Positions 2,924-63,185 of a DNA stretch of 64,000 nucleotides are shown here, piece after piece. How positions within the stretch are numbered: position 1 is the stretch's first letter; every line of letters starts with the position of its first letter. Location of the stretch: the NCBI GenBank assembly GCA_963718915.1, contig CAVRAI010000003.1, forward strand, positions 642,103 to 706,102. Direction: 5' to 3'. Position numbers and translations under genes: made by a program. The DNA comes from an uncultured Chloroflexia bacterium (GTDB taxonomy: Bacteria; Chloroflexota; Ktedonobacteria; Ktedonobacterales; JADMIN01). The notes under the pieces are model-generated. The model was not told the DNA's origin, did no database searches, and saw nothing but the letters and a program-made list of their open reading frames with translations.

Positions 2924-3712
2924 ATGGAAGAGCACTCAACTGGCACGGCGCCTCACAAGGTCGAGCATAGATTCCGCGCGCTTTCACGCCCCGCGGACAG
3001 TTTTGGAATCGTCTTGATTCTCCTCGTCCTCGATTACATCGCCGTCTCGGCGATCACTGACAACGCCTGGGGACGAGTCGTCATCGTTGTATTGCTGGGC
3101 GCTACCCTTCTGTTCGCGTTGCATACCTCACATGCTCGTCGTATCTGGCAGCTTCTGGCGGCGCTCTACCTCCTGGTGAGCACGCTGGTCACGGTCGTCA
3201 GCATCCTGGCGCCTGGCGCGACCGATTTTAGCTCGCAGACCTCCCTGGTGGGTGGATTGCTGTTGCTCATTACACCGGTCGCCATTTCGCGCCGCATCGT
3301 TTCGCACCGGTTTGTGACGACCGAGACGGTGCTCGGGGCGATATGTGTGTACTTGTTGATTGGTTTCTCATTCTCATTCATCTACTCGGCGATTGGTTTC
3401 GTGAGCGGCGCCCCCTTCTTCGGAGGCCAAATGCAGGCGACCGCGAACGACTACCTCTTCTTCAGCTACACCACGCTTACCACAGTAGGCTACGGCAATC
3501 TCATACCCGCGGGCAGTGTGGGGCAGACCTTCGCCATGCTCGAAGCGCTTACTGGCCAGATCTATCTGGTAATCGTCGTCGCACGGTTAGTCTCCCTCTG
3601 GGGCCAAGAGCGCCCCTCATCGGCAGTGAGAGGCATGCGCGGCGCGGAAACCAATAACACGCCGCAGGAGCGCGCCCAGTCTCCACAGACTCCCCAACCG
3701 CCAACCGGTTAG
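2924..3712 (+). CDS. Two-TM-type potassium channel family protein
   Basis: ORF 2843..3712. Start preferred at ATG 2924 (GGAGG 5 nt upstream). Selectivity filter TTLTTVGYGNLIP; several TM helices. Confidence 0.8.
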   Translation: MEEHSTGTAPHKVEHRFRALSRPADSFGIVLILLVLDYIAVSAITDNAWGRVVIVVLLGATLLFALHTSHARRIWQLLAALYLLVSTLVTVVSILAPGATDFSSQTSLVGGLLLLITPVAISRRIVSHRFVTTETVLGAICVYLLIGFSFSFIYSAIGFVSGAPFFGGQMQATANDYLFFSYTTLTTVGYGNLIPAGSVGQTFAMLEALTGQIYLVIVVARLVSLWGQERPSSAVRGMRGAETNNTPQERAQSPQTPQPPTG

Positions 3713-3919
3713 CCTTTCGGTGAGGCGCATTCCCCCCATTTGTATGGGCGGTGACTACCCTGCCAGACATACCTTGCGCATGAGGACAAGCCAGACCGCA
3801 CTCTATATGCTTCCCATATGCTTCCCATGTGCGCGCCAAATGCACGCGCGGCGCCAGGCCATGTGCCTGTCACGTCTGGGGTGGCAGTGTGTATGGGGAA
3901 TATGGGGAGAAACGCATCC

Positions 3920-5200
3920 ATGCGAGATTCGAAGAATACCGCGGCTGGGCAGCAACGGCGGCTTCCCTTGCCGAACCTGCGCCTGATTCTCGGTATCGTC
4001 GCCGCCGCGTTCGCGGTCATGCTGGTGTTGCAGGCGATCACTATTGCCGCGCTCACGATGGTGGACAGGCAGCGCAAACGCCGGAGCGCCCCGGCGGCTT
4101 TTCCGCATAGCGAGCTGCCCGAAGTCACCCTCGACGGTAGCTCTTTCCAGATCTACGTCTACGGGCGCGACCTCTACGATGCGATGCTTACCGCCATCGA
4201 TGAGGCTACCGACACCATCTATATGGAAACATTCATCTGGAAGGATGATGAGGCTGGCCAGGAATTCAAGGAGCATCTCGCGCGCAAGGCCGAGCAGGGG
4301 GTCGCGGTCTATGCGGTCTACGATGTCTTCGGCAATCTCGTGGTGCCGCGCGACTTTAAGCAGTTTCCCGCCAACATCCATCTGCTGCGCTACCGTGCCA
4401 TCCATCGCCTGCGCCACCTGCTCATGCCGCGCCGCTATGCCCTCGACCATCGCAAGCTGTTGATCGTGGATGGCCGGATCGCCTTTATCGGCGGCTACAA
4501 CATCGGCAGTCTCTACGCCACCGAATGGCGCGACACCCACCTGCGTATCACCGGGCCAGACGCCGCATTCATCGCCCAGGCGTTCGTCGACTTCTGGAAC
4601 CGGAACGCCCCGCGCTCCGATCTCATCAACAAACGCTACCAGCGACACTACAACGCCGCAATGGGCGTGCGCAGCAATGACGCGATGCGCCTGACATTCC
4701 CCATTCGCGACATGTATCTCAACGGAATCGACGCCGCCGACCGCGACATCCGCCTCACCAGCGCCTATTTTATTCCTGACCACGTCTTGCTGAACTCGCT
4801 CAAAGCGGCGGCGGCCCGTGGGGTGGATGTGCAGGTGCTCGTGCCGTGGACATCGAACCATATCGTCGCCGACTGGGCCTCCCACGCCTACTTCACTGAA
4901 TGCCTGCAAGCGGGCATCCGCATCTTTGGCTATGAGCACGCGATGATTCATGCCAAGACCTGTACCGTGGATGGCGAGCTTACGACCATCGGCACCGCGA
5001 ATATCGACCGGCTCAGCTCCGTTGGCAACTATGAGATCAACGCGGTGATTGTCAACCCGGACGTAGCCAGTCAGATGGAGCGCATCTTCGAGGCCGACAA
5101 ATCGAACGCGTTCGAGCTGACGCTGGAAAAGTGGCGTTCGCGCCCGTGGTACGTCAAAGCAAGCGAGCGGATCATCAAACCACTGCGGTTCGTCCTGTGA
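3920..5200 (+). CDS. cls: Cardiolipin synthase / phospholipase D family protein
   Basis: ORF 3818..5200. The start is uncertain (ATG 3893, 3902 or 3920). N-terminal TM LILGIVAAAFAVMLVLQAITIAAL. Two HKD motifs: HRKLLIVDGRIAFIGGYNIG and HAKTCTVDGELTTIGTANID. Confidence 0.75.
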   Translation: MRDSKNTAAGQQRRLPLPNLRLILGIVAAAFAVMLVLQAITIAALTMVDRQRKRRSAPAAFPHSELPEVTLDGSSFQIYVYGRDLYDAMLTAIDEATDTIYMETFIWKDDEAGQEFKEHLARKAEQGVAVYAVYDVFGNLVVPRDFKQFPANIHLLRYRAIHRLRHLLMPRRYALDHRKLLIVDGRIAFIGGYNIGSLYATEWRDTHLRITGPDAAFIAQAFVDFWNRNAPRSDLINKRYQRHYNAAMGVRSNDAMRLTFPIRDMYLNGIDAADRDIRLTSAYFIPDHVLLNSLKAAAARGVDVQVLVPWTSNHIVADWASHAYFTECLQAGIRIFGYEHAMIHAKTCTVDGELTTIGTANIDRLSSVGNYEINAVIVNPDVASQMERIFEADKSNAFELTLEKWRSRPWYVKASERIIKPLRFVL

Positions 5201-10672: not shown

Positions 10673-10756
10673 ATCAGCGTTTCCTCCAGGAGGATCCAGG
10701 AAAGCAAGTGGCAACGCTTCCCATAGACTCGCTTCCCATAGACTCCAGTTAGACTC

Positions 10757-10820
10757 CAGCATGAACGACGCCCACGCTCGCTACCCCGTCCGCTGGGTGA
10801 GTCTGCCGGGTGGGTTTCTC
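10757..10820. other. Conserved about 65-nt intergenic element, copy 2
   Basis: CAGCATGAACGACGCCCACGCTCGCTACCCCGTCCGCTGGGTGAGTCTGCCGGGTGGGTTTCTC. See copy 1 at 7869..7933. Confidence 0.7.
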
Positions 10821-11507: not shown

Positions 11508-12275
11508 ATGATGCTGGCAAACAAGGTGGCCATCGTGACCGGGGGCGACAGCGGCATTGGGCACGCAATCAGCGTGGGACTCGCCCGCGAGGGCGCCGCA
11601 GTGACGATTAACTACCACCGCGACCAGGCGGCTGCCGAAGCCACGTTGCGACAGATTCAGCAGGAGGGTGGCAAGGGCCAGGTCATCCAGGCCGATGTCG
11701 CCAATCCGGCGGATATTCAGAAGCTCGTCGACCAGACGGTGCAGGCGTTCGGGCGTCTGGATGTGATGGTCAATAACGCCGGGATGGAGACGCGCACCTC
11801 CCTGCTCGATACCACGGAGCGGCAGTTCGATCTGGTGATCGGCGTTGACCTGAAGAGCGCCTTTTTCGGGACGCAGATGGCCGCCCGGCAGATGATCAAA
11901 CAGGGCGGCGGCGGCCACATCATCAATATCTCGTCGGTCCATGAAGACTGGCCGATGCCAGGCAATATCGCCTACTGCTGCGCCAAAGGCGGGGTGCGCA
12001 TGCTGACCCGGACCGCTGGCGTTGAGCTGGGGCCGAATGGCATCACGGTGGTGAACGTTGGCCCTGGCGCGGTGGATACCCCCATCGACGCCAAGACACT
12101 TGCCGATCCAGCAGAGAAGGCCAAGCTCGACGCCGCCATTCCACTTGGCCACGTCGCTGAGCCGAACGAGATCGCCAACCTGGTGGTCTGGCTGGCCTCT
12201 GACCAGGCGCGCTATGGGACCGCGACCACGTACTTCATTGACGGCGGCATCATGCAGAGCAGCGTTGGCCTCTAG
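11508..12275 (+). CDS. SDR family oxidoreductase (glucose 1-dehydrogenase-like)
   Basis: KVAIVTGGDSGIGHAI (TGxxxGxG), NNAG, catalytic YCCAKGG (YxxxK). Confidence 0.9.
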   Translation: MMLANKVAIVTGGDSGIGHAISVGLAREGAAVTINYHRDQAAAEATLRQIQQEGGKGQVIQADVANPADIQKLVDQTVQAFGRLDVMVNNAGMETRTSLLDTTERQFDLVIGVDLKSAFFGTQMAARQMIKQGGGGHIINISSVHEDWPMPGNIAYCCAKGGVRMLTRTAGVELGPNGITVVNVGPGAVDTPIDAKTLADPAEKAKLDAAIPLGHVAEPNEIANLVVWLASDQARYGTATTYFIDGGIMQSSVGL

Positions 12276-12283
12276 CCCACTGC

Positions 12284-18131: not shown

Positions 18132-19463
18132 ATGTCACAGAGCACCCTGGCTGCTTTGGCCGCGGCCCTCGCCTGGGTGGCGTTGATCGCCTATGCCGTG
18201 CTCGGGGGCGCGGATTTCGGCGGCGGGATCTGGGATTTGCTGGCCAGAGGACCGACGGCCGAGCGTCAGCGCGCGGTCATAGCCCGTGGCATGGGACCTG
18301 TCTGGGAGTCCAACAACGTCTGGCTCATCTTTGTGCTGGTGGTCACCTGGACGGCTTTCCCCATTGTCTACGCTGGGATCTCGACCGCTCTCTTCATCCC
18401 TATTACACTGGCCGTCATTGGCATTGTGCTGCGCGGGGCGGCGTTCAGCTTTCGCTCGAACTACGGCCGGGAAATCGGGTCAGGCGTGCGCTGGGGCTAT
18501 GCCTTCAGCATCGCGAGCACAATCACACCATTTCTCTTTGGCACGATGGCTGGGGCGCTGGCGAGTGGTAACATTCGTGTCTCAACTGGACCATCTCTGC
18601 AGGTACAAGCCAACCCGTGGACGACCTGGACGACCCCCTTCGCCCTCGCCTGTGGCCTGTTTGCGGTCGCGCTCTGCTCGGTCCTTGCGGCGACTTACCT
18701 CACCATTGATGCACGCAAGGCGGGAGACAACGCAGTCGCCGAGGGCTTCCGGCTGCGTGCGCTCATCGCTGGCGCTGTGACTGCGGCGCTGGGGGCGCTG
18801 TCGGCGGTGCTCGCGATCTCCGAGGCGCCCACCTTCTGGCAAGGGTTGATCGGCAAGGCCCTGCCATTCACCATCGCCGCAGTGGTGATTGGCCTGGCTA
18901 CGGCCGCCGCGTTGCTGCGTCACCTCGATTATCTTGCCCGCGTCCTGGTGGCAGCGGAGACGGCGTGTATCTTCCTGGCCTGGGGTGTTGCCCAATGGCC
19001 GTATTTGATCGTGCCAGATGTGACGGTAGATAATGCCGCTAGTCCAGCCTCTGTGCTCGGACCGCTGTTGATTGTCTCCCTCCTTGGTCTGGTAATTCTC
19101 TTGCCTTCGCTCTGGTATCTTTTTACAGTCGTCAAGCGTACCCCGAGGCCCAGCACACCTTCGGCTGGGGCTAGGGTCACGACGGCTGCCTTCGTCGCAT
19201 CACTCCCGCTCGCCGAGCCTGAGGCGCCGTCACCGCGCACCGAACCGATGTCCGCGCAAGCCTCGGCGGTTGTGTTGCCGGGTGGCCCAACCATGCAACG
19301 GATTGTGCCAGTGCTCACAGCATTGTTCGCGATCGCCGCCGCCCCCCTCATTACCAGTATGCTAGAAGGCATGAGTCGCGGCATGCATCGTGGCATGCAG
19401 CAGGGCCTTGAGCGTGTCCAGCGTCGGCGCAACCAACGGCATCGGAGCGCGCACGCACATTAA
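18132..19463 (+). CDS. cydB: Cytochrome bd-type quinol oxidase subunit II with a C-terminal extension of about 100 aa
   Basis: LAWVALIAYAVLGGADFGGGIWDLLA is typical of CydB. At 443 aa it is longer than usual, and the extra tail contains one more hydrophobic helix (IVPVLTALFAIAAAPLITSML). Confidence 0.85.
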   Translation: MSQSTLAALAAALAWVALIAYAVLGGADFGGGIWDLLARGPTAERQRAVIARGMGPVWESNNVWLIFVLVVTWTAFPIVYAGISTALFIPITLAVIGIVLRGAAFSFRSNYGREIGSGVRWGYAFSIASTITPFLFGTMAGALASGNIRVSTGPSLQVQANPWTTWTTPFALACGLFAVALCSVLAATYLTIDARKAGDNAVAEGFRLRALIAGAVTAALGALSAVLAISEAPTFWQGLIGKALPFTIAAVVIGLATAAALLRHLDYLARVLVAAETACIFLAWGVAQWPYLIVPDVTVDNAASPASVLGPLLIVSLLGLVILLPSLWYLFTVVKRTPRPSTPSAGARVTTAAFVASLPLAEPEAPSPRTEPMSAQASAVVLPGGPTMQRIVPVLTALFAIAAAPLITSMLEGMSRGMHRGMQQGLERVQRRRNQRHRSAHAH

Positions 19464-20180: not shown

Positions 20181-20289
20181 ATGTCCGCATATGGAGTATA
20201 TGGAGCATATGAAGCATATGGAGCGAGCGCGACGAGCACTGTCTCCGTCGCGCTCTCATGCATTGCCAGTGGTGTGTGGCGGCAGCGGC

Positions 20290-36704: not shown

Positions 36705-37931
36705 ATGGATTCGACCGACCGTCTTGATGGCGCAGGCAGCACAGGTGGTGTAGCGCCCAGAGTTGACCCATCCGCGCGGCGTCGTTTCTCCATCACGATC
36801 ACGACGCGCAGCCTCCTGCTGGCGGCGGCTATCGGCGTCGCCATCCTGGTTGGCGTGATTGTCATCACGCAGGCGCTGGGGACGTTGATCTCCCTTGTGC
36901 TGGCCATCATTCTTGGCGAGGCCATCCGGCCAGTGGTGGCCTGGTTGCGGAAGTATCGGATTCCCGCCCCACTGGCGGTTTTACTCATCTATGTGGTGGG
37001 CGCTGTGGTTTTCGGCGTGCTTATCTGGCTGCTGCTGAACCCAATCATCAGCCAGATCAACAATCTGACCACCCACCTCCCGGAGTATCTCCAGCGCCTT
37101 CAGCAACACGCAGACGATCTGGAGCGGCAACTGCGTGCTCAGAGCGCGCTCTCGGGCCTCATCGACACGATCTCCCAATCGCTGGCGAACCTCGCGCAAC
37201 AGTTTATCCCCAGGCTGATCGCGGTGCCCTTGGGGCTGCTAACTGGCGTCTTCAGCCTCTTCATCAATGCCGTGATCCTGCTGACGATGACCCTCTTCTG
37301 GTTTTTGGCTACGGACGAGCTCAAGCCGTTCGTCGTCGGGCTTTTCCCGGAAGCCTCGCAAGACCATGCGTCGCAGGTATTCACCGAGATAGGGCGGGCG
37401 TTCGGCGGCTACATTCGGGGCACGCTGATCGCTATGCTCTTGATTGGGAGCTTGACTGGCGCCGGCCTTGCGCTGCTCGGGGTGCCCTACGCCTTGCTGC
37501 TGGGGATCCTGGCCGGGTTCACCGAGCTCCTACCGTACCTGGGGCCGTGGATTAGTGGGACCGTCTCGGTTCTGGTTGCGCTAATTACGGTGGACCCGGG
37601 CAAAGCACTCCAGGTGGTCTTGTTGTTTATCTTGATCCAGAATATCGAGGGCAATGTGATAGAGCCGTTGGTGATGAGCCGTGCGGTGAAGATCAATCCG
37701 CTGGTGGTGATCGTTGCGGTGCTGATCGGGCTGGACCTGTTGGGAATCGTTGGCGCGATCCTGGCGGTGCCCGTTGCCGCAGCTATCCAGATCATCATAT
37801 TGCGCGTGCTGGCGCCAGCGATCCGTCGGTCGTCGGCATCCTCCGCGCCACCTCCCGTCGAGGTGATGACGGTCGAGTCGACCGCGCCACCCGATGCCAG
37901 CGTGGCGGGCCAACCTGTGACGGAGACGTGA
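36705..37931 (+). CDS. AI-2E family transporter (PerM/UPF0118)
   Basis: ORF 36567..37931, start at ATG 36705 (GGAGAGGAG upstream). FGGYIRGTLIAMLLIGSLTGAGLALLGVPYALLLGILAGFTELLPYLGPWISG. Confidence 0.85.
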   Translation: MDSTDRLDGAGSTGGVAPRVDPSARRRFSITITTRSLLLAAAIGVAILVGVIVITQALGTLISLVLAIILGEAIRPVVAWLRKYRIPAPLAVLLIYVVGAVVFGVLIWLLLNPIISQINNLTTHLPEYLQRLQQHADDLERQLRAQSALSGLIDTISQSLANLAQQFIPRLIAVPLGLLTGVFSLFINAVILLTMTLFWFLATDELKPFVVGLFPEASQDHASQVFTEIGRAFGGYIRGTLIAMLLIGSLTGAGLALLGVPYALLLGILAGFTELLPYLGPWISGTVSVLVALITVDPGKALQVVLLFILIQNIEGNVIEPLVMSRAVKINPLVVIVAVLIGLDLLGIVGAILAVPVAAAIQIIILRVLAPAIRRSSASSAPPPVEVMTVESTAPPDASVAGQPVTET

Positions 37932-39000
37932 TGCTAGCTATTGCCTCTCTCCTGCTTTTGCGCTGTCCGGTGCGGCTTCGGTGGCTACCGGTGGCTTCGG
38001 TGGCTTCGGTGGCTTCGGTGGCTTCGGTGGCTTCGGTGGCTTCGGTGGCTTCATCCGCATGAAGGCGCGCTGCCTGCAGGATCGCCGGAATATCCCCGCC
38101 CACCAGCCGCCGCCCCGCGATCCATGAGTTCAGCTCCGCGCCGAGGAGCAGGATGAAGCCGAGATAGTAGAAGAAGATGAGGATCACCACGGCGAATCCC
38201 GCGACGGAGCCGTAGTTGTCTGGCCGCAGGAAGCGGCTCACATAGAGGGGAAAGAGGCTGATGTATGGAACCAGCAGCACCGTGGCGAGCAGCGTCCCCG
38301 GAATAACCTGCCGGAGGCGAATGCGCCGGTTGGGCACGATGAGATAGATGGCGCCGAACAGGATAAACGCGGAGAGCACTGCCACGATATTCCCCAGCAC
38401 GCCAGCGAGCGCCGCCTGACCAGAGTCCGCCAGGTATGGATCGACGAGTCTGACGATGGCCGAGGGCAGCGAGAAGGCCAGCGCGATGAGTGGCGTGAGA
38501 ATGAGATACAGCGCGAGCATGCCAAACGCCATCAGTTGTTTCGGGATCAGATCGCGCCCGCGCACGCGGAAGATGATTCCGAAGCAGGTCTCGATGACCA
38601 TGAACAGGTTCGACCCGCCAAGCACCGACCCCACCAGGCCAATGAGGAAGAGCAGCCCGACATTCGTGGTCAGCTGGTTCGCGACCGCATGAAATATCTC
38701 GGCTCCGCCAGGGATAACCTGTGCAAACACCTGCTCGATATGCGCATAGATGCTGGAAGCATGGTCGCCAAGGATGAGTCCCACGGCAGCGAGCAAGAGG
38801 AGCAAGATCGGGAAGAGCGACATCAGGAGGTTATAAGCCAGCATCCCCGAGAGATTGAAGACCCAATCGTCATTGAGTTTGGTCCAGAAGTCGAGCAGGG
38901 GCTGGATCGTCTTGAGAACGCGCCGCACCAGGCTGAATCGCATCCAGGGCTGTTGTTGTTCCATTGGGTCGGCCTCGTGGAAGCGCTCGCGCGCCGTCAC
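37795..39000 (-). CDS. YihY/BrkB family membrane protein with an (EAT)n repeat tail; the annotated 3' end is probably an artefact of a frame change in the repeat
   Basis: FWTKLNDDWVFNLSGMLAYNLLMSLFPILLLLLA is typical of YihY. The GTG start at 39000 overlaps the upstream protease stop (GTGA). The tail overlaps the convergent AI-2E gene by 137 nt. Confidence 0.8.
   Translation of the reverse strand: MTARERFHEADPMEQQQPWMRFSLVRRVLKTIQPLLDFWTKLNDDWVFNLSGMLAYNLLMSLFPILLLLLAAVGLILGDHASSIYAHIEQVFAQVIPGGAEIFHAVANQLTTNVGLLFLIGLVGSVLGGSNLFMVIETCFGIIFRVRGRDLIPKQLMAFGMLALYLILTPLIALAFSLPSAIVRLVDPYLADSGQAALAGVLGNIVAVLSAFILFGAIYLIVPNRRIRLRQVIPGTLLATVLLVPYISLFPLYVSRFLRPDNYGSVAGFAVVILIFFYYLGFILLLGAELNSWIAGRRLVGGDIPAILQAARLHADEATEATEATEATEATEATEATGSHRSRTGQRKSRREAIASITSPSQVGPPRWHRVARSTRPSSPRREVARRMPTTDGSLAPARAI
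37974..38052. repeat. 9-nt tandem repeat (ggcttcggt), about 8 units, one 10-nt variant unit at 37983-37992
   Basis: Read directly from the sequence. Encodes the EAT repeats of the YihY tail on the minus strand. Confidence 0.9.
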
Positions 39001-40184
39001 CCGGTTGCGCTGGTAGGTCGTTCTCCCAGCGTCACCGTCATGGTCTGCTGGGAGGAGCCGCGCTGGACGGTCACCTGAACCCGCGTGCCGGGCGAGAGGG
39101 AGAGCAGGATGCCTGCCAGGTCAGCATTGCCGGTGACCCTGGCGCCATTCACGGCGACAATGATATCGCCCTGTTGCATGCCAGCCTGCTGCGCGGGGCT
39201 TTGTCCGGCGGCGTCAGAGACGAAGCCGGTTACCAGCACACCGGAATTGACGGGCAGGTTGTTTGCCGATGCCAGGTCTGGGGTCACGTCGGCGCCAGTG
39301 ATACCAAGGAAGCCCTGGCCGCTGTTTACCACACGGCCATTCTTCACGAGCTGGTCGGCGACGAATTTGACCCGGTTCACCGGGATCGCGAAGCCGATGC
39401 CCTCCGCCGCCGCGCCAGAGGAAGGGATGGTCGCCGATAAGGTGGGGATGCCAATCAGTTCCTCCTGCAAGTTCACCAGCGCCCCGCCCGAATTGCCTGG
39501 ATTGATGGGCGCGCTGGTCTGGATGAGGCCGGTCAGCACGCCTGCGGGGCCGTTGGGCGCTTCGCTGGCCGTCCGGTTGAGCGCGCTCACAATGCCAAAC
39601 GTGGCCGACTGTTGCAGGCCAAGCGGCGCACCAATCGCGAGGACGAATTCGCCGACCTGCACCGCGCTTGAATTTCCAAACTTGATCGGCCGTAACCCGG
39701 TGGCGCTGACCTTCAGCACGGCCAGGTCATCGGCAGGCGCCTCGCCGACGAGCGTCGCGGGTAGCGTCTTTCCATTGGAGAGCAAGACGTGAAATGAGGT
39801 GAACCCCTGAACCACGTGGTCGTTGGTGACAATGTTGCCGTCGCTGGAGATGATTTCGCCCGACCCAATCGCGCCTGATCCATCGGCGCTGGCGCTCTGC
39901 ACCTCGACGACGGAGGGCTGAACGGCGGGGATAACGTTCACGGGCGCCTGGGGAAGTGCGGATGCTCCACCAGATGACGATGATGACGAGGAGTTTGCCG
40001 TGGGGGTCGTTAATCCCTGTCCTGGATTCGTGCCGGGGAGCGCACAGCCGCCGATGAGCAGAGCGATGGCAAGCGCGATGGCGCCCAACCCGCCCGGCCA
40101 CCACGCTGACAACCTGGCATATCGCGCCGTGCGCCGCGCCCCTGTCGTGACGCCGCCACATGAATCATCTGCATTCACGGCCAT
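38997..40184 (-). CDS. S1C (HtrA/DegP-like) serine protease with C-terminal PDZ domain, membrane-anchored
   Basis: ORF 38997..40316, start preferred at ATG 40184. TM WWPGGLGAIALAIALLIGG. Triad context TNDHVV, DLAVLKV, GNSGGALVNL. PDZ-like tail (GVLVTGFVSDAAGQSPAQQAGMQQGDIIVAVNG). Confidence 0.85.
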   Translation of the reverse strand: MAVNADDSCGGVTTGARRTARYARLSAWWPGGLGAIALAIALLIGGCALPGTNPGQGLTTPTANSSSSSSSGGASALPQAPVNVIPAVQPSVVEVQSASADGSGAIGSGEIISSDGNIVTNDHVVQGFTSFHVLLSNGKTLPATLVGEAPADDLAVLKVSATGLRPIKFGNSSAVQVGEFVLAIGAPLGLQQSATFGIVSALNRTASEAPNGPAGVLTGLIQTSAPINPGNSGGALVNLQEELIGIPTLSATIPSSGAAAEGIGFAIPVNRVKFVADQLVKNGRVVNSGQGFLGITGADVTPDLASANNLPVNSGVLVTGFVSDAAGQSPAQQAGMQQGDIIVAVNGARVTGNADLAGILLSLSPGTRVQVTVQRGSSQQTMTVTLGERPTSATG

Positions 40185-40286
40185 TTCCCTTTGCGGTTGG
40201 TTGCCAGCCAGCGGTCTTCCGTGGGGATGATTCCTTACCAGCGGCGCGCAATGTGCTGTCGCTGGCGCGTTGCGCCGTAATCTGCG

Positions 40287-40321
40287 CATAAGCAATAAGC
40301 AATAAGCAATAAGCAATAAGC
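40287..40321. repeat. 7-nt tandem repeat (aataagc) x5
   Basis: cataagc aataagc aataagc aataagc aataagc, read directly. Lies upstream of the preferred protease start. Confidence 0.9.
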
Positions 40322-46290: not shown

Positions 46291-47289
46291 ATGAACAAAA
46301 CACTCACCCGCACAATCTGTTGCAAACTGGATGTTGACGGCCATGAAGTTGTCTTGGCCGCGACGCAACGCGCCTTCAACGCGGCAGCGACCTGGATTGC
46401 GCAGATATGCTGGGATGAGGGCATCACGAACACCAACACTGCCCACCATCGGGTCTATGGCGAGACGCGCCTGAACTTCGGCCTGGGCGCGCAATTGGCT
46501 GTCTGCGCCAGAGCCAAGGCGATTGAAGCCATCAAGGCGGTCAAGGCCAAGCGTCGCGAACAGACCGACACCTGCCCGCGCTTCGGGCCACGTGGCAGCA
46601 TTCGCTACGACGCCCGCACCTATCGCCTGATGAGTCTTGACCGTGTCTCGCTTAACACCCTGGATGGTCGTATCGTCTGCCGTCTGCTGTTGGGCGCGCG
46701 TCAGCATGAGATGCTGGTAGACCCGGCATGGACGATTGGCGGTGCTGATCTGGTCTGGCGGCGTGGGGTCTACTACCTGCATGTCACGCAAAGCCGCGAA
46801 GCGCCGGATGTCTTGGAGCCAAATAGTGGCACACATAGTGGCACACTGGGTGTTGACCTGGGCATTGTGAATCTGGCCACCGATAGTGAGGGTGAGTCGT
46901 TTAGCGGCACGACGGTGAAGAAAGCCGTCGTCTCGTGCAAGGCAATCGCTCTCGAAGACCTCAGCGGAATCCGAGAGCGGGTCACGGTTCGTCACGAACA
47001 TCGCTACGAACGGCATTCCTGGGCCTTCTACCAATTGCGCTCCTTTCTCACCTACAAAGCCGCATGGGCCGACGTGTCGCTGCATCTGGTAGACCCTCGG
47101 AATACCAGCCGCACGTGCTCGGCTTGTGGCCATTGTGAGAAGGCGAATCGGAAGAGCCAAGAGTCGTTCCTCTGCCAGCGATGTGGCTTCGCACTCAATG
47201 CGGACTACAATGCCGCCATCAACATCTCGCGAAAAGAATCCTATCGGGCCGCAGTCAATCGGCCTATGGCGTCACCCCTCGCGGGGTAG
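46291..47289 (+). CDS. tnpB: TnpB (IS200/IS605-family OrfB, RNA-guided nuclease type) with an internal deletion of about 50-55 aa
   Basis: RuvC-I GVDLGIVNLA (D189), RuvC-II AIALEDL (E222), zinc ribbon TCSACGH...CQRCG, RuvC-III NADYNAAINI (D305). D-to-E spacing is 33 aa versus about 85 in full-length TnpB. No tnpA is adjacent. Confidence 0.8.
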   Translation: MNKTLTRTICCKLDVDGHEVVLAATQRAFNAAATWIAQICWDEGITNTNTAHHRVYGETRLNFGLGAQLAVCARAKAIEAIKAVKAKRREQTDTCPRFGPRGSIRYDARTYRLMSLDRVSLNTLDGRIVCRLLLGARQHEMLVDPAWTIGGADLVWRRGVYYLHVTQSREAPDVLEPNSGTHSGTLGVDLGIVNLATDSEGESFSGTTVKKAVVSCKAIALEDLSGIRERVTVRHEHRYERHSWAFYQLRSFLTYKAAWADVSLHLVDPRNTSRTCSACGHCEKANRKSQESFLCQRCGFALNADYNAAINISRKESYRAAVNRPMASPLAG

Positions 47290-52041: not shown

Positions 52042-52974
52042 CTAGAAGAGCGCGCCGCCAGTGAGCTGATTGACGATCGTTTTCATGCGATTCGAGGAGA
52101 TAGCGAAACCGATGCCATTGGCGGCAACCCCGGTCGAAGGCTCTACCGCTGCGAGGGTCGGGATGCCGACAAGCTGCCCTTGCAGGTTGACCAGCGCCCC
52201 ACCACTATTGCCAGGGTTGATCGGCGCGCTCGTCTGGATCATGCCAGTGATCGTGAATCGCTGGTTATCCACCACCTCGGTCGCGGAACGATTGAGCGCG
52301 CTGATGATGCCGGATGTGGCCGATTGCTCGAGTCCCAGTGGGCTGCCCACGGCAAGGGCAAACTCGCCGACCACCACCTTGCTGGAATCGCCAACTGCTA
52401 TCGGCTTGAGGTCGGTCGCATTGACTTTCAGCACCGCCAGGTCTTCGGAGGGCGCCTCGCCGATCAGCGTGGCGGGAATCTGCTGGCCATTTGCCAGCAG
52501 CACTGTATAGGTAGAGAGGCCGTGAACGACGTGGCTATTCGTCACGATGTAGCCATCCGAGGTCAGAATCTCGCCTGACCCGATGCTTCCGCCCGTGAGG
52601 CCGCCGCGCCCCTGTATCTGCACGACCGATGGATCGACGTTATGGATGACGTTGATGGTGGTCGCCTCGATGTCCGTACCGGAGGGCGCCGATGAGGTAG
52701 ACGACGTGCCATTAGTCCTCCCAGCTAACGTCCCCGCCCCAAAGATGAGACCGAAAAGCACAGCCGCGCCGAGGGCAATCCAGAGCGGTCGCCAGGAATG
52801 GCCTTGTCTCGTCTGTTGCGCGGTCGGTGGTGGCGCGGATGGCGCAATCGATGGCGTGGCTTGTGGTGCGACAGGTGGCGTGGCTGGAGAGGTTGCGCCA
52901 TTCACTGGCATACTGGTAGAAACCGGCGAATTAGGTACGTTGAAGGCGCGTGGATCCCTGGAATTGTCTTGCAT
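52042..52974 (-). CDS. S1C (HtrA-like) serine protease without PDZ domain
   Basis: ORF 52042..53016, start preferred at ATG 52974 (AGGAG 7 nt upstream). TM RPLWIALGAAVLFGLIFGAG. TNSHVV, DLAVLKV, GNSGGALVNL. The protein ends right after the protease domain. Confidence 0.8.
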   Translation of the reverse strand: MQDNSRDPRAFNVPNSPVSTSMPVNGATSPATPPVAPQATPSIAPSAPPPTAQQTRQGHSWRPLWIALGAAVLFGLIFGAGTLAGRTNGTSSTSSAPSGTDIEATTINVIHNVDPSVVQIQGRGGLTGGSIGSGEILTSDGYIVTNSHVVHGLSTYTVLLANGQQIPATLIGEAPSEDLAVLKVNATDLKPIAVGDSSKVVVGEFALAVGSPLGLEQSATSGIISALNRSATEVVDNQRFTITGMIQTSAPINPGNSGGALVNLQGQLVGIPTLAAVEPSTGVAANGIGFAISSNRMKTIVNQLTGGALF

Positions 52975-61690: not shown

Positions 61691-61953
61691 CCGGAAGCCC
61701 AATGTAGTTTTAGAAAGCACCAGGGACACGGGCTGGGCAGCGCGGGCGGTTCAAACCGCGCCTGTGGGGCCTGCGGCCACCAAGTCCGCCGTCGCGGACT
61801 CCCAGACCGTGTCCCAACGCGCTCCCCGTTGGCGAGCGGTTCTGGGCAACCCGCGCAGGCGGGTGTCGTGGCGGAGCAGGTGCAGCAGGCGGAGCAGGCG
61901 CAGCAGGCGAGGCGCAGCAGGCGAGGCCCTTCAGGCGCGACTTCAGTCGCCAG
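61691..61953 (-). repeat. REP-like multi-hairpin array, copy B (inverted relative to copy A)
   Basis: The reverse complement aligns with 55217-55465, sharing blocks such as ggcgactgaagtcgcgcctgaagggcc and gagtccgcgacggcggacttggtggccgcaggcc...caggcgcggtttgaaccgcccgcg. Confidence 0.75.
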
Positions 61954-61975
61954 CCGCCGTGGCGGTCCGTCGTAA

Positions 61976-63108
61976 TTAACGTGAGTTCGGGATAACTACA
62001 GGGTAACATGAACGGGCATCTCCTGCTCTTGGACGAGGGAGGGTTTCTTGGGTTGGCGGCAGTAGGCGACCAATCCGGCGAAGAGATGCACGAGGAAGTT
62101 GAGCGGGCTGCGGTGGCGGGTATGCTCAATCTGGCAGATGTTCTTGAGTTGGTCGTTGATGCTCTCAATGATCGCCCGTTTGCGGAGCAGGAGTTTGTCG
62201 GCCAGGGGCATGAGCACATGGCGCATATTTTTGCGCAGTTTGGTAATGAGGCGCAGGCGCTGAGTGAGCAAGAGCTGCTCAGCGAGCGCTGCTCAGCGAG
62301 CGCTGCTCAGCGAGCGCCGCCGAGATGTAGCCTTTGGTAGCCTTTGTCGGCGAAGAGGCGGCCGAAGAGGCGACCGAAGAGGCGGACCGAAGAGGCGGCC
62401 GAAGAGGCGATGCGTGCCACGCACCAAGCGTGGCACAGGCTGACGGTCATCGACGTTGCCGGGGGAAGACAAAACGCCAGCAGTTCGCCGCGGTCGTTGA
62501 CCACCAGATGCAGTTTGAAGCCGAAGAACCAGCCCACCGAGGTCTTGCCCCGCCGGGCATCCACGCGAAAGACCCGATGCTGGTGGATGCGCGCCGGGTG
62601 ACAGACCGCGAGGGCCGTCGAGTCAATGAAGCTGACACGAAGCTGACACCGGTGCAGGTTCCACATTGCGTGCGCAGGTAGACGGCGAGCGGAAGGAGGA
62701 CTCGCGGCAGCAATTCGATGCAGCAATTCGATGCAGCGATTCGATGCAGCGATTGTAGCTCACGAGGTGCGGAAACTCCCGGCGCAGATGCACCTGCACA
62801 TACTCAGTATAGAACGCTTTGTATAGAACGCTTTGAAGGTGCGGTAGCCCGACTGCTGCAAGAGGATCGCGATGGTCATAATTTCACTGGGATGCAGCCG
62901 GGTCGCGCGTCGACGACGGCGCGTCCCCGAGACGAGCAACTCGCGCTCCCACCACGGCTCAAAGACCTGCCAGAACGCATCCACGGAGCAGTACAAGGCG
63001 TCCAGGTCGAGTATACTCATGACATGCCTCCATTCAGGGACTGACGGGGTGTCGTAAACCGCATCATATCTCTGTTGAAGGCATTTCGCTTATCCCGAAC
63101 TCACGTTA
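61976..63108 (-). mobile_element. IS982-family insertion sequence, decayed (transposase in at least 3 frames, riddled with tandem duplications)
   Basis: Terminal inverted repeats taacgtgagttcgggataa (61976-61994) and ttatcccgaactcacgtta (63090-63108). Transposase fragments are ORFs 62760..63020 (MSILDLDALYCSVDAFWQVF...SEIMTIAILLQQSGYRTFKAFY), 62307..62726 (FIDSTALAVCHPARI...GWFFGFKLHLVVNDRGELL...LFADKGY) and 61996..62271 ([26 protein letters not shown]). Confidence 0.8.
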
Positions 63109-63185
63109 TTTAGTAAAACGACATAAGGCCCCGGCGAATGGGGATGGAAATTCGCCGTAGCGTTCACGCTACGGCCTGCCTTCCG
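63109..63185 (+). repeat. REP-like array, partial copy C (matches 55445-55525 of copy A, same orientation)
   Basis: tttagtaaaacgacataaggccccggcgaatggggatggaaattcgccgtagcgttcacgctacggcctgcc compared with tttctaaaaccacatcaggctgcggcgaatgggg...ggaaattcgccgtagcgttcacgctacggcctgcc. Confidence 0.6.

Follow-up and report, generated by a model that had tools for sequence, protein, structure and literature searches.

Dead insertion sequences (ISs) are rare among bacterial DNA in being free of selection, and hence display the raw mutation spectrum. A deletional bias has been described for bacteria (Kuo and Ochman, 2009; PMC2817411), and in the pseudogenes of Burkholderia deletions are in the majority (insertion/deletion ratio 0.76), with indel sizes that follow a power law in which 1–3 nt dominate and few exceed 15 nt, and with about half of the insertions forming direct repeats (Danneels et al., 2018; PMC6054270). 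Short tandem duplications have been described from two further settings. In E. coli, the topA R168C allele yields de novo head-to-tail duplications of 2–19 bp for which pre-existing repeats are not needed, while point mutation is not raised (PMC6954433). Microhomology-mediated tandem duplication, first described in S. pombe, has been tied to flap processing at Okazaki fragment maturation and becomes more frequent upon deletion of Rad27, a maturation factor of these fragments; in bacterial reference genomes, 50–60% of duplications are without microhomology (bioRxiv 10.64898/2026.02.28.708716). Here we examine a defunct IS982-family element within a 64-kb stretch (hereafter the window) of the chromosome of an uncultured member of the Ktedonobacterales (contig CAVRAI010000003.1). 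CydB encoded in the window is 100% identical to a protein on a 910-kb NCBI/ENA contig, and its relatives at 87–93% identity carry a Ktedonobacterales annotation. A literature search for tandem duplications or tandem repeats in Ktedonobacteria gave no relevant result. The reading that we favour, at a probability of roughly 70%, is that this is a recently inactivated IS982 copy, broken by short tandem duplications that stem from a process active across the surrounding chromosome, where its products are filtered by selection in genes.

Lesions of the IS982-family copy

A first-pass annotation of the window had assigned the element to IS982 and reported a transposase in three frames between 19-bp inverted repeats. 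The assignment is borne out: once the extra repeat units are deleted and a single-base gap is mended, the minus-strand frames merge into a 295-aa transposase without stops that matches the NCBIfam profile NF033520 (IS982 family transposase) at 243.7 bits against a cut-off of 130 (E = 2.1e-72, profile positions 3–240 of 243) and the Pfam family PF13612 (DDE_Tnp_1_3) at E = 2.4e-68. The inverted repeats share an exact core of 18 nt, AACGTGAGTTCGGGATAA, and reach 23 nt at 96% identity when extended (chance expectation 0.01 matches). Between the cores lie 1130 bp, and the same ends are conserved in the related copies L081–L095. Profile score, inverted-repeat length (roughly 18–35 bp in the family) and a size of about 1 kb all agree with membership; the single uninterrupted transposase frame of an active member is absent. 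The architecture is as follows.

61978–63107, minus strand: whole IS982-family element, defunct (inverted repeats, alignment to the intact relatives L081–L089, NF033520 and PF13612 matches of the collapsed open reading frame)
61973–61995: terminal inverted repeat, 3' end of the transposase strand (exact 18-nt core 61978–61995)
61996–62271, minus strand: C-terminal transposase fragment, 91 aa, with IESINDQLK motif
62307–62726, minus strand: central transposase fragment in a different frame, with IDST motif and LFADKGY catalytic-region motif
62760–63020, minus strand: N-terminal transposase fragment, 86 aa, starting MSILDLDALYCSVDAFWQVFEPWW
63090–63112: terminal inverted repeat, 5' end of the transposase strand (exact 18-nt core 63090–63107)

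As such, the IS is an ordinary member of a known family, and what is unusual about it is the mutational spectrum that it has recorded. Like its kin it measures about 1 kb and has 18–23-bp inverted repeats, one DDE transposase, which after repair has about 295 aa, and the IDST, DKGY and IES motifs. Unlike them it is non-functional, carries 140 extra bases and a G-to-A change in the LFGDKGY motif, and lacks a recognisable target-site duplication, as the first pass had also remarked: its flanks, TAATT and ATTTA, have ATT alone in common. Target-site duplications in the IS982 family measure 3–9 bp (ISfinder), and those of the intact relatives are 5 bp long and AT-rich, with a clean ATGTT in L083 and a second site, ATCTT, suggested by L085 and L088. 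Around identical transposase genes, these three carry the flank pairs ATGTT/ATGTT (L083), ATCTT/ATGTT (L085) and ATGTT/ATCTT (L088), a swap that indicates two insertion sites with 5-bp target duplications and, in addition, that copies have recombined or that the assembly is chimeric. Among 5.8 billion proteins searched, 7840 are homologues of the transposase at E <= 1e-60, the named ones coming from metagenome-assembled genomes of Ktedonobacterales; the closest are 90%, 88%, 84% and 83% identical and 294–295 aa long. When genome contigs were scanned with the rebuilt transposase, the best among the matches listed were 64–65% identical.

Lesions were identified by aligning the element at the DNA level to nine intact copies (L081–L089; 83–90% amino acid identity), with arrays called by Tandem Repeats Finder (TRF) and by direct reading.

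62020–62031: imperfect 6-nt duplication, in frame (CAAGAG CAGGAG on the minus strand), +6, absent from relatives
62274–62317: tandem triplication, 14 nt x3.1 (100%), +28, i.e., two extra 14-mers; 2 nt microhomology
62327–62346: tandem duplication, 10 nt x2 (100%), +10, within the DKGY codons; 0 nt microhomology
62351–62409: 12-mer array x4.8 (91%), +37; five units against two imperfect ones in intact copies, one 13-nt unit shifting the frame
62410–62420: net 9-nt insertion forming a hairpin, +9 (alignment and direct reading)
62466/62467: single-base deletion with a neighbouring substitution, TGTCT-TCCCCC against TGTCTGACCCCC in relatives, -1
62628–62649: tandem duplication, 11 nt x2 (100%), +11; 0 nt microhomology
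62707–62754: 13-nt array x3.7 (97%), +26, i.e., two extra 13-mers
62807–62835: tandem duplication, 14 nt x2 (TRF x2.1, 100%), +14, de novo; 1 nt junction microhomology

All five arrays that the first pass had listed are recovered by TRF where it had placed them. Its count of at least five was too low, since the 11-mer at 62628–62649 and the 6-mer at 62020–62031 bring the duplicated sites to at least seven. Six frame-breaking insertions and a 1-nt deletion account for the three frames and leave the element dead, and with six independent frame breaks programmed frameshifting is ruled out as the cause of the split transposase. That deletion, at 62466/62467, is the only frame-breaking lesion other than a duplication. 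Altogether the copy carries eight insertion sites against the one deletion, and subtraction of the net 140 nt of private lesions shortens it from 1133 bp to 993 bp; the intact relatives are of this size and align with it from end to end.

Most of the insertions are tandem duplications; one is not. The insertion at 62410–62420 turns what in intact copies is an inverted match of only 3 bp into a perfect 9-bp inverted repeat (62414–62422 and 62428–62436) around a 5-nt loop, GTGCCACGC-ACCAA-GCGTGGCAC, and as far as sequence can tell it is a template-switch (quasi-palindrome correction) signature. Among the duplications themselves two origins can be told apart. At four sites (units of 14, 11, 10 and 14 nt) the duplications arose de novo, because junction homology amounts to only 1, 0, 0 and 2 nt, and microhomology arms are missing there from the ancestral sequence. 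They are present at the other two. Intact copies already encode RLFGRLFG as two imperfect 12-mers at the site of the 12-mer array, and at that of the 13-mer array they carry AATCGCTGC...AATTGCTGC, a 9/10 direct repeat with 13-nt spacing. The first pass had counted both among its micro-duplications; this stands for the extra units, which are private to the copy, whereas these two arrays grew from imperfect repeats that were there before. In the 13-mer array, a C/C/T/T pattern among the units implies two events that differed in phase. In the 12-mer array, which duplicates the GRLF codons, the frame-shifting 13-nt unit had been correctly noted.

These two seeds would speak for the view that the repeats are ancestral to this IS lineage and that the copy is not unusually decayed, a view to which we assign next to no likelihood. 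Opposite every array all nine intact relatives show a gap, so that each of these insertions is private to the window copy; three further close copies from a metagenome scan (L093–L095) are likewise without the arrays, and forty intact proteins of 290–301 aa can be aligned without any of the window-copy insertions. The refuting condition that the first pass had named, intact copies with the same repeats, is therefore not borne out. Of the three further copies L093 is intact, L094 (JACZCV010003764.1) has 8-nt and 9-nt insertions, neither a clean duplication, and L095 has a 2-nt deletion. Decay in these other lineages (L094 and L095) is thus not obviously duplication-only, and decayed copies are too few for its generality to be judged.

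The second half of the argument is the near absence of point decay. With the insertions removed, no stop codon interrupts the transposase, and the codon-wise ratio of nonsynonymous to synonymous change (dN/dS) of the collapsed copy is 0.112 against L081 and 0.132 against L082, compared with 0.085–0.093 between intact copies. Private codon changes divide 22:6 into synonymous and nonsynonymous in the window copy, 33:6 in L081 and 38:3 in L082. At the 132 columns that are invariant among 40 intact relatives, the window copy has three private changes, where the relatives have a mean of 1.0 (range 0–6). From these figures we estimate that neutral substitution since inactivation probably does not exceed about 1%. 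Within that interval, roughly 1% or less of neutral substitution, at least ten duplication events would have struck 1 kb of DNA: four de novo pairs, two starts seeded by repeats, and at least four further expansions. Low point decay together with many duplications gives quantitative support to the earlier claim that duplication dominates the decay of this copy.

Short tandem duplications across the window

The first-pass annotation had linked the IS lesions to repeats found throughout the window. Indeed, the window holds 28 perfect tandem duplications with units of at least 8 nt, six of them in the IS (5.3 per kb) and 22 elsewhere (0.35 per kb). Unrelated bacterial loci that served as controls gave 0.087 per kb over 480 kb and 0.048 per kb over 166 kb, so that the density outside the IS is 4–7 times higher (Poisson P = 8e-8), and in second-order Markov (Markov-2) simulations of the window perfect duplications of units of at least 9 nt are all but absent. 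The units measure 8–15 nt and peak at 9 and 11; 7-mers are not in excess, and no unit is longer than 15 nt. Simple slippage would not predict such a length scale, which is about one helical turn. The copies follow one another head to tail without a seam, and in about half of the two-copy duplications junction homology is 0 nt. No common motif was found in the units or their flanks within the window, and the units have a GC content of 54% in a window of 61%. Directly adjoining the IS there is a further non-coding feature of this type:

61870–61937: overlapping 9-, 14- and 18-nt tandem arrays, non-coding (TRF)

These arrays are the same duplication process acting outside the IS.

What carries the most weight is where these duplications lie relative to genes. 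On a gene map based on third-position GC content (GC3), arrays with periods that are not multiples of three are intergenic or upstream of likely start codons, and those deep within genes have periods of 9, 12 or 15. Outside the IS there are about 11 out-of-frame perfect duplications, and none is inside an intact gene. With a non-coding share of about 12.5%, taken from the syntenic relative (about 87% of the DNA is coding), the probability that random placement would keep all of them out of coding DNA is 0.125^11, or about 1e-10. The link to the window-wide repeats, with selection as the filter, is upheld in that out-of-frame units occur outside genes or in the relic and those in genes are multiples of three. 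Such a filter is a footprint of selection, and it is our main argument that we are dealing with real mutations rather than assembly artefacts.

That argument bears directly on the suspicion that the lesions are errors that arose when a multi-copy element was assembled or polished from long metagenomic reads. The suspicion has some basis: the length of the source contig, 910 kb, suggests long reads, IS copies are repeats and as such are badly handled by polishers, and the relative L090, assembled from short reads, is poor in such duplications. It is difficult to reconcile with the obedience to reading frame of the duplications elsewhere in the window, where the other genes are intact, ordinary chromosomal genes without frameshifts. 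Moreover, the positions do not follow a polishing-window spacing, and independent short-read assemblies of relatives hold private duplications of this kind of their own (a 15-mer in L090, 9-mers in L173, a 12-mer in L083). We consider an artefact to be quite improbable.

Three array calls were looked at one by one. The 13-nt array at 52628 is a weak TRF call in an intact protease gene and no duplication; the 10-mer at 638 sits upstream of the likely GTG start; and the 9-mer pair at 18618 in CydB encodes a conserved WTTWTT motif and is ancient. Two further arrays deserve mention in their own right. The largest expansion of the window, 9 nt x8.7 at 37974–38052, encodes, in frame, part of the C-terminal tail of a YihY/BrkB-family membrane protein (37795–39000, minus strand). 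A perfect 7-nt array (ATAAGCA, x4.9; 40288–40321) overlaps the 5' end of an HtrA-like protease open reading frame (38997–40316, minus strand) and could be a length-variable switch of expression.

The window also contains a second mobile-element relic, a TnpB-like open reading frame of 332 aa (46291–47289, plus strand) in which only a Cas12f1-like TNB domain was detected. Relative to intact Ktedonobacterales relatives of 374–381 aa it has lost 49 aa in frame between RuvC motifs I and II, with VKKA direct repeats at the edges of the loss, and it has gained a private in-frame 12-nt tandem duplication at 46823–46846 (NSGT HSGT). It appears decayed, and some function may have been kept, all lesions being in frame. 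Its tally, a duplication and a deletion mediated by repeats, is neither strong support for the pattern of the IS nor evidence against it.

Age and rate of the duplications

The duplications now standing are young. For units of 10–15 nt there are 16 perfect arrays and six with one mismatch, of which 3.2 are expected by chance, and this ratio suggests that their age averages no more than some 1% of divergence. Turnover can also be followed by comparison with L090, a syntenic JGI contig of about 88% identity, and with L173, a second relative (86–92% identity) that allows indels to be polarised. Between the window and L090, about 9–10 of the 24 indels of at least 4 nt are of the tandem-repeat type, among them adjacent 15- and 11-nt duplications at 10715–10759, a 9-mer array at 20187 and a 15-mer array in L090. 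Three-way polarisation leaves two clean duplication indels with units of at least 9 nt, and each belongs to one lineage only: the 9-mer array to that of the window and the 15-mer to that of L090. The two genomes differ in further respects: L090 has an additional SBF-family transporter gene (3150–4106; L090 3008–4133 against window 12251–12277) that is absent from the window, and about 290 bp downstream of its cydB are likewise missing there, from which it follows that larger deletions or insertions also separate the two lineages.

Several of these comparisons, however, weigh against a chromosome-wide process that is merely filtered by selection. Perfect duplications reach only 0.05 per kb in L090 and 0.16–0.24 per kb in L173, so the excess is not uniform across the clade. 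In a 12-kb region shared by all three genomes, the window lineage has accumulated 621 private substitutions and only one to three private insertions of the duplication type; per substitution, duplications would have accrued in the relic at no less than ten times the pace of conserved intergenic DNA. The enrichment of the relic is itself weak. The first pass had supposed that duplication acts preferentially on unselected sequence, and the IS is indeed denser, but only about 2.4-fold (P = 0.04) over a rough estimate of 2.2 duplications per kb for the non-coding DNA of the window, a difference that is consistent with a wholly unconstrained relic set against partly constrained intergenic DNA. Finally, all the frame-breaking duplications, together with the hairpin insertion, fall within the central 560 bp or so of the element (62274–62835).

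This clustering invites an explanation in terms of one or a few events of error-prone synthesis, in which a break in the IS was repaired by a low-processivity, template-switching polymerase that stuttered over about 600 bp. A template-switch insertion alongside the duplications is what such an event might leave, and at least ten events while neutral point divergence rose by no more than about 1% are more easily accommodated in a burst, given that syntenic intergenic DNA gained just one to three over 5% of lineage-specific divergence. Nonetheless, seamless perfect duplications of 8–15 nt are scattered over all 64 kb and make a special event unnecessary; the 13-mer array requires two events that differed in phase, and the 14-mer array a second step; and that about six sites should fall in one half of the element is only weakly significant. 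On balance we think a burst unlikely. The tension between rates may be read in three ways: short intergenic regions may be strongly constrained and duplications rapidly lost, so that an equilibrium density is soon reached; the duplication rate may have risen recently in the window lineage; or a clustered repair event may have taken place inside the IS. We favour the first two over the third because the same type of duplication is spread over the window.

Proposed mechanism and comparison with known systems

Under the selection-filtered reading that we prefer, stretches of 10–14 bases would have been copied head to tail at about seven sites of the IS, and replication slippage would then have enlarged some of the resulting pairs to three to five copies. 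Imperfect repeats of the working element were the starting point of two arrays, and four arose de novo with 0–2 nt of junction homology. The same would happen along the whole chromosome, where the products would survive only in non-coding DNA, or in genes if the unit is a multiple of three; the relic, free of selection, would display the spectrum unfiltered. The process would start from nicks or flaps that are mis-repaired during replication or repair, independently of pre-existing repeats, after which ordinary slippage would expand or collapse the copies, and rapid loss would keep those still standing young. This initiating enzymology is our inference, for which topA R168C is the closest precedent, with mis-processing of flaps at Okazaki fragment maturation beside it; fill-in of staggered nicks and footprints of transposon excision are weaker alternatives.

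The excision alternative holds that transposable elements inserted into the dead IS, creating target duplications of 8–15 bp, and were then excised, the ends being joined so as to keep both target copies. The target-duplication sizes of several IS families (ISfinder tables) overlap the 8–15-nt range of the units, including the peaks at 9 and 11, and the window does contain remains of mobile elements, namely the IS982 relic and the TnpB-like open reading frame. Insertion and excision of IS30 has moreover been proposed as a source of 2–3-bp direct repeats in pseudogenes (PMC6054270). A single element, however, predicts one fixed size rather than a broad range; the copies join without a seam; slippage would be needed in any case for arrays of three to eight copies; two arrays clearly derive from pre-existing repeats; and seven independent cycles of insertion and excision in 560 bp within about 1% or less divergence are implausible. 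In our judgement this alternative is highly improbable, more so than an assembly artefact.

A bolder proposal, which we offer tentatively and regard as doubtful, is that the lineage is a natural tandem-duplication mutator. In its unconstrained DNA, de novo head-to-tail duplications of 8–15 bp would arise largely independently of microhomology, about as often as substitutions and far more often than deletions, so that neutral DNA would be biased toward insertion; a unit length close to one helical turn would suggest a defined step of nick or flap processing rather than generic slippage. Were the spectrum to prove genome-wide, the topA duplication mutator of the laboratory would have a natural counterpart in this lineage, whose neutral DNA would tend to grow, and the pattern would bear on the origin of tandem repeats and on the large genomes that some bacterial lineages keep. 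Insertion-biased neutral sequence, if true, would run counter to the deletional bias held to be general for bacteria, and the dead IS would be the clearest recorder of the process. For annotation a caution follows, in that pseudogenes of this clade may be restorable by collapsing perfect short repeats.

How, then, does the relic compare with what has been described? Its resemblance to microhomology-mediated tandem duplication lies in the passage from single copy to pair to array, and the 13-mer and 12-mer arrays look as expected if flanking homology had seeded them. The difference, that about half of the two-copy duplications in the window have 0 nt at the junction, is close to the bacterial figure of that preprint and so does not discriminate. 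With topA R168C it shares the four duplications of 0–2 nt microhomology and a high ratio of duplications to substitutions; it differs in that topA R168C is a laboratory mutant, that the excess in the window is confined to 8–15 nt, and that topA lies outside the window. With bacterial pseudogenes at large it has in common that tandem duplication is a normal class of insertion there too. The proportions set it apart: eight insertion sites with units of 6–14 nt stand against one 1-nt deletion, and point decay is almost absent. At the Burkholderia ratio of 0.76, we calculate that at least eight of nine indels would be insertions with P of about 0.007. The decay of bacterial pseudogenes has been described as biased toward deletion and rich in point changes; the spectrum recorded in this IS is the reverse.

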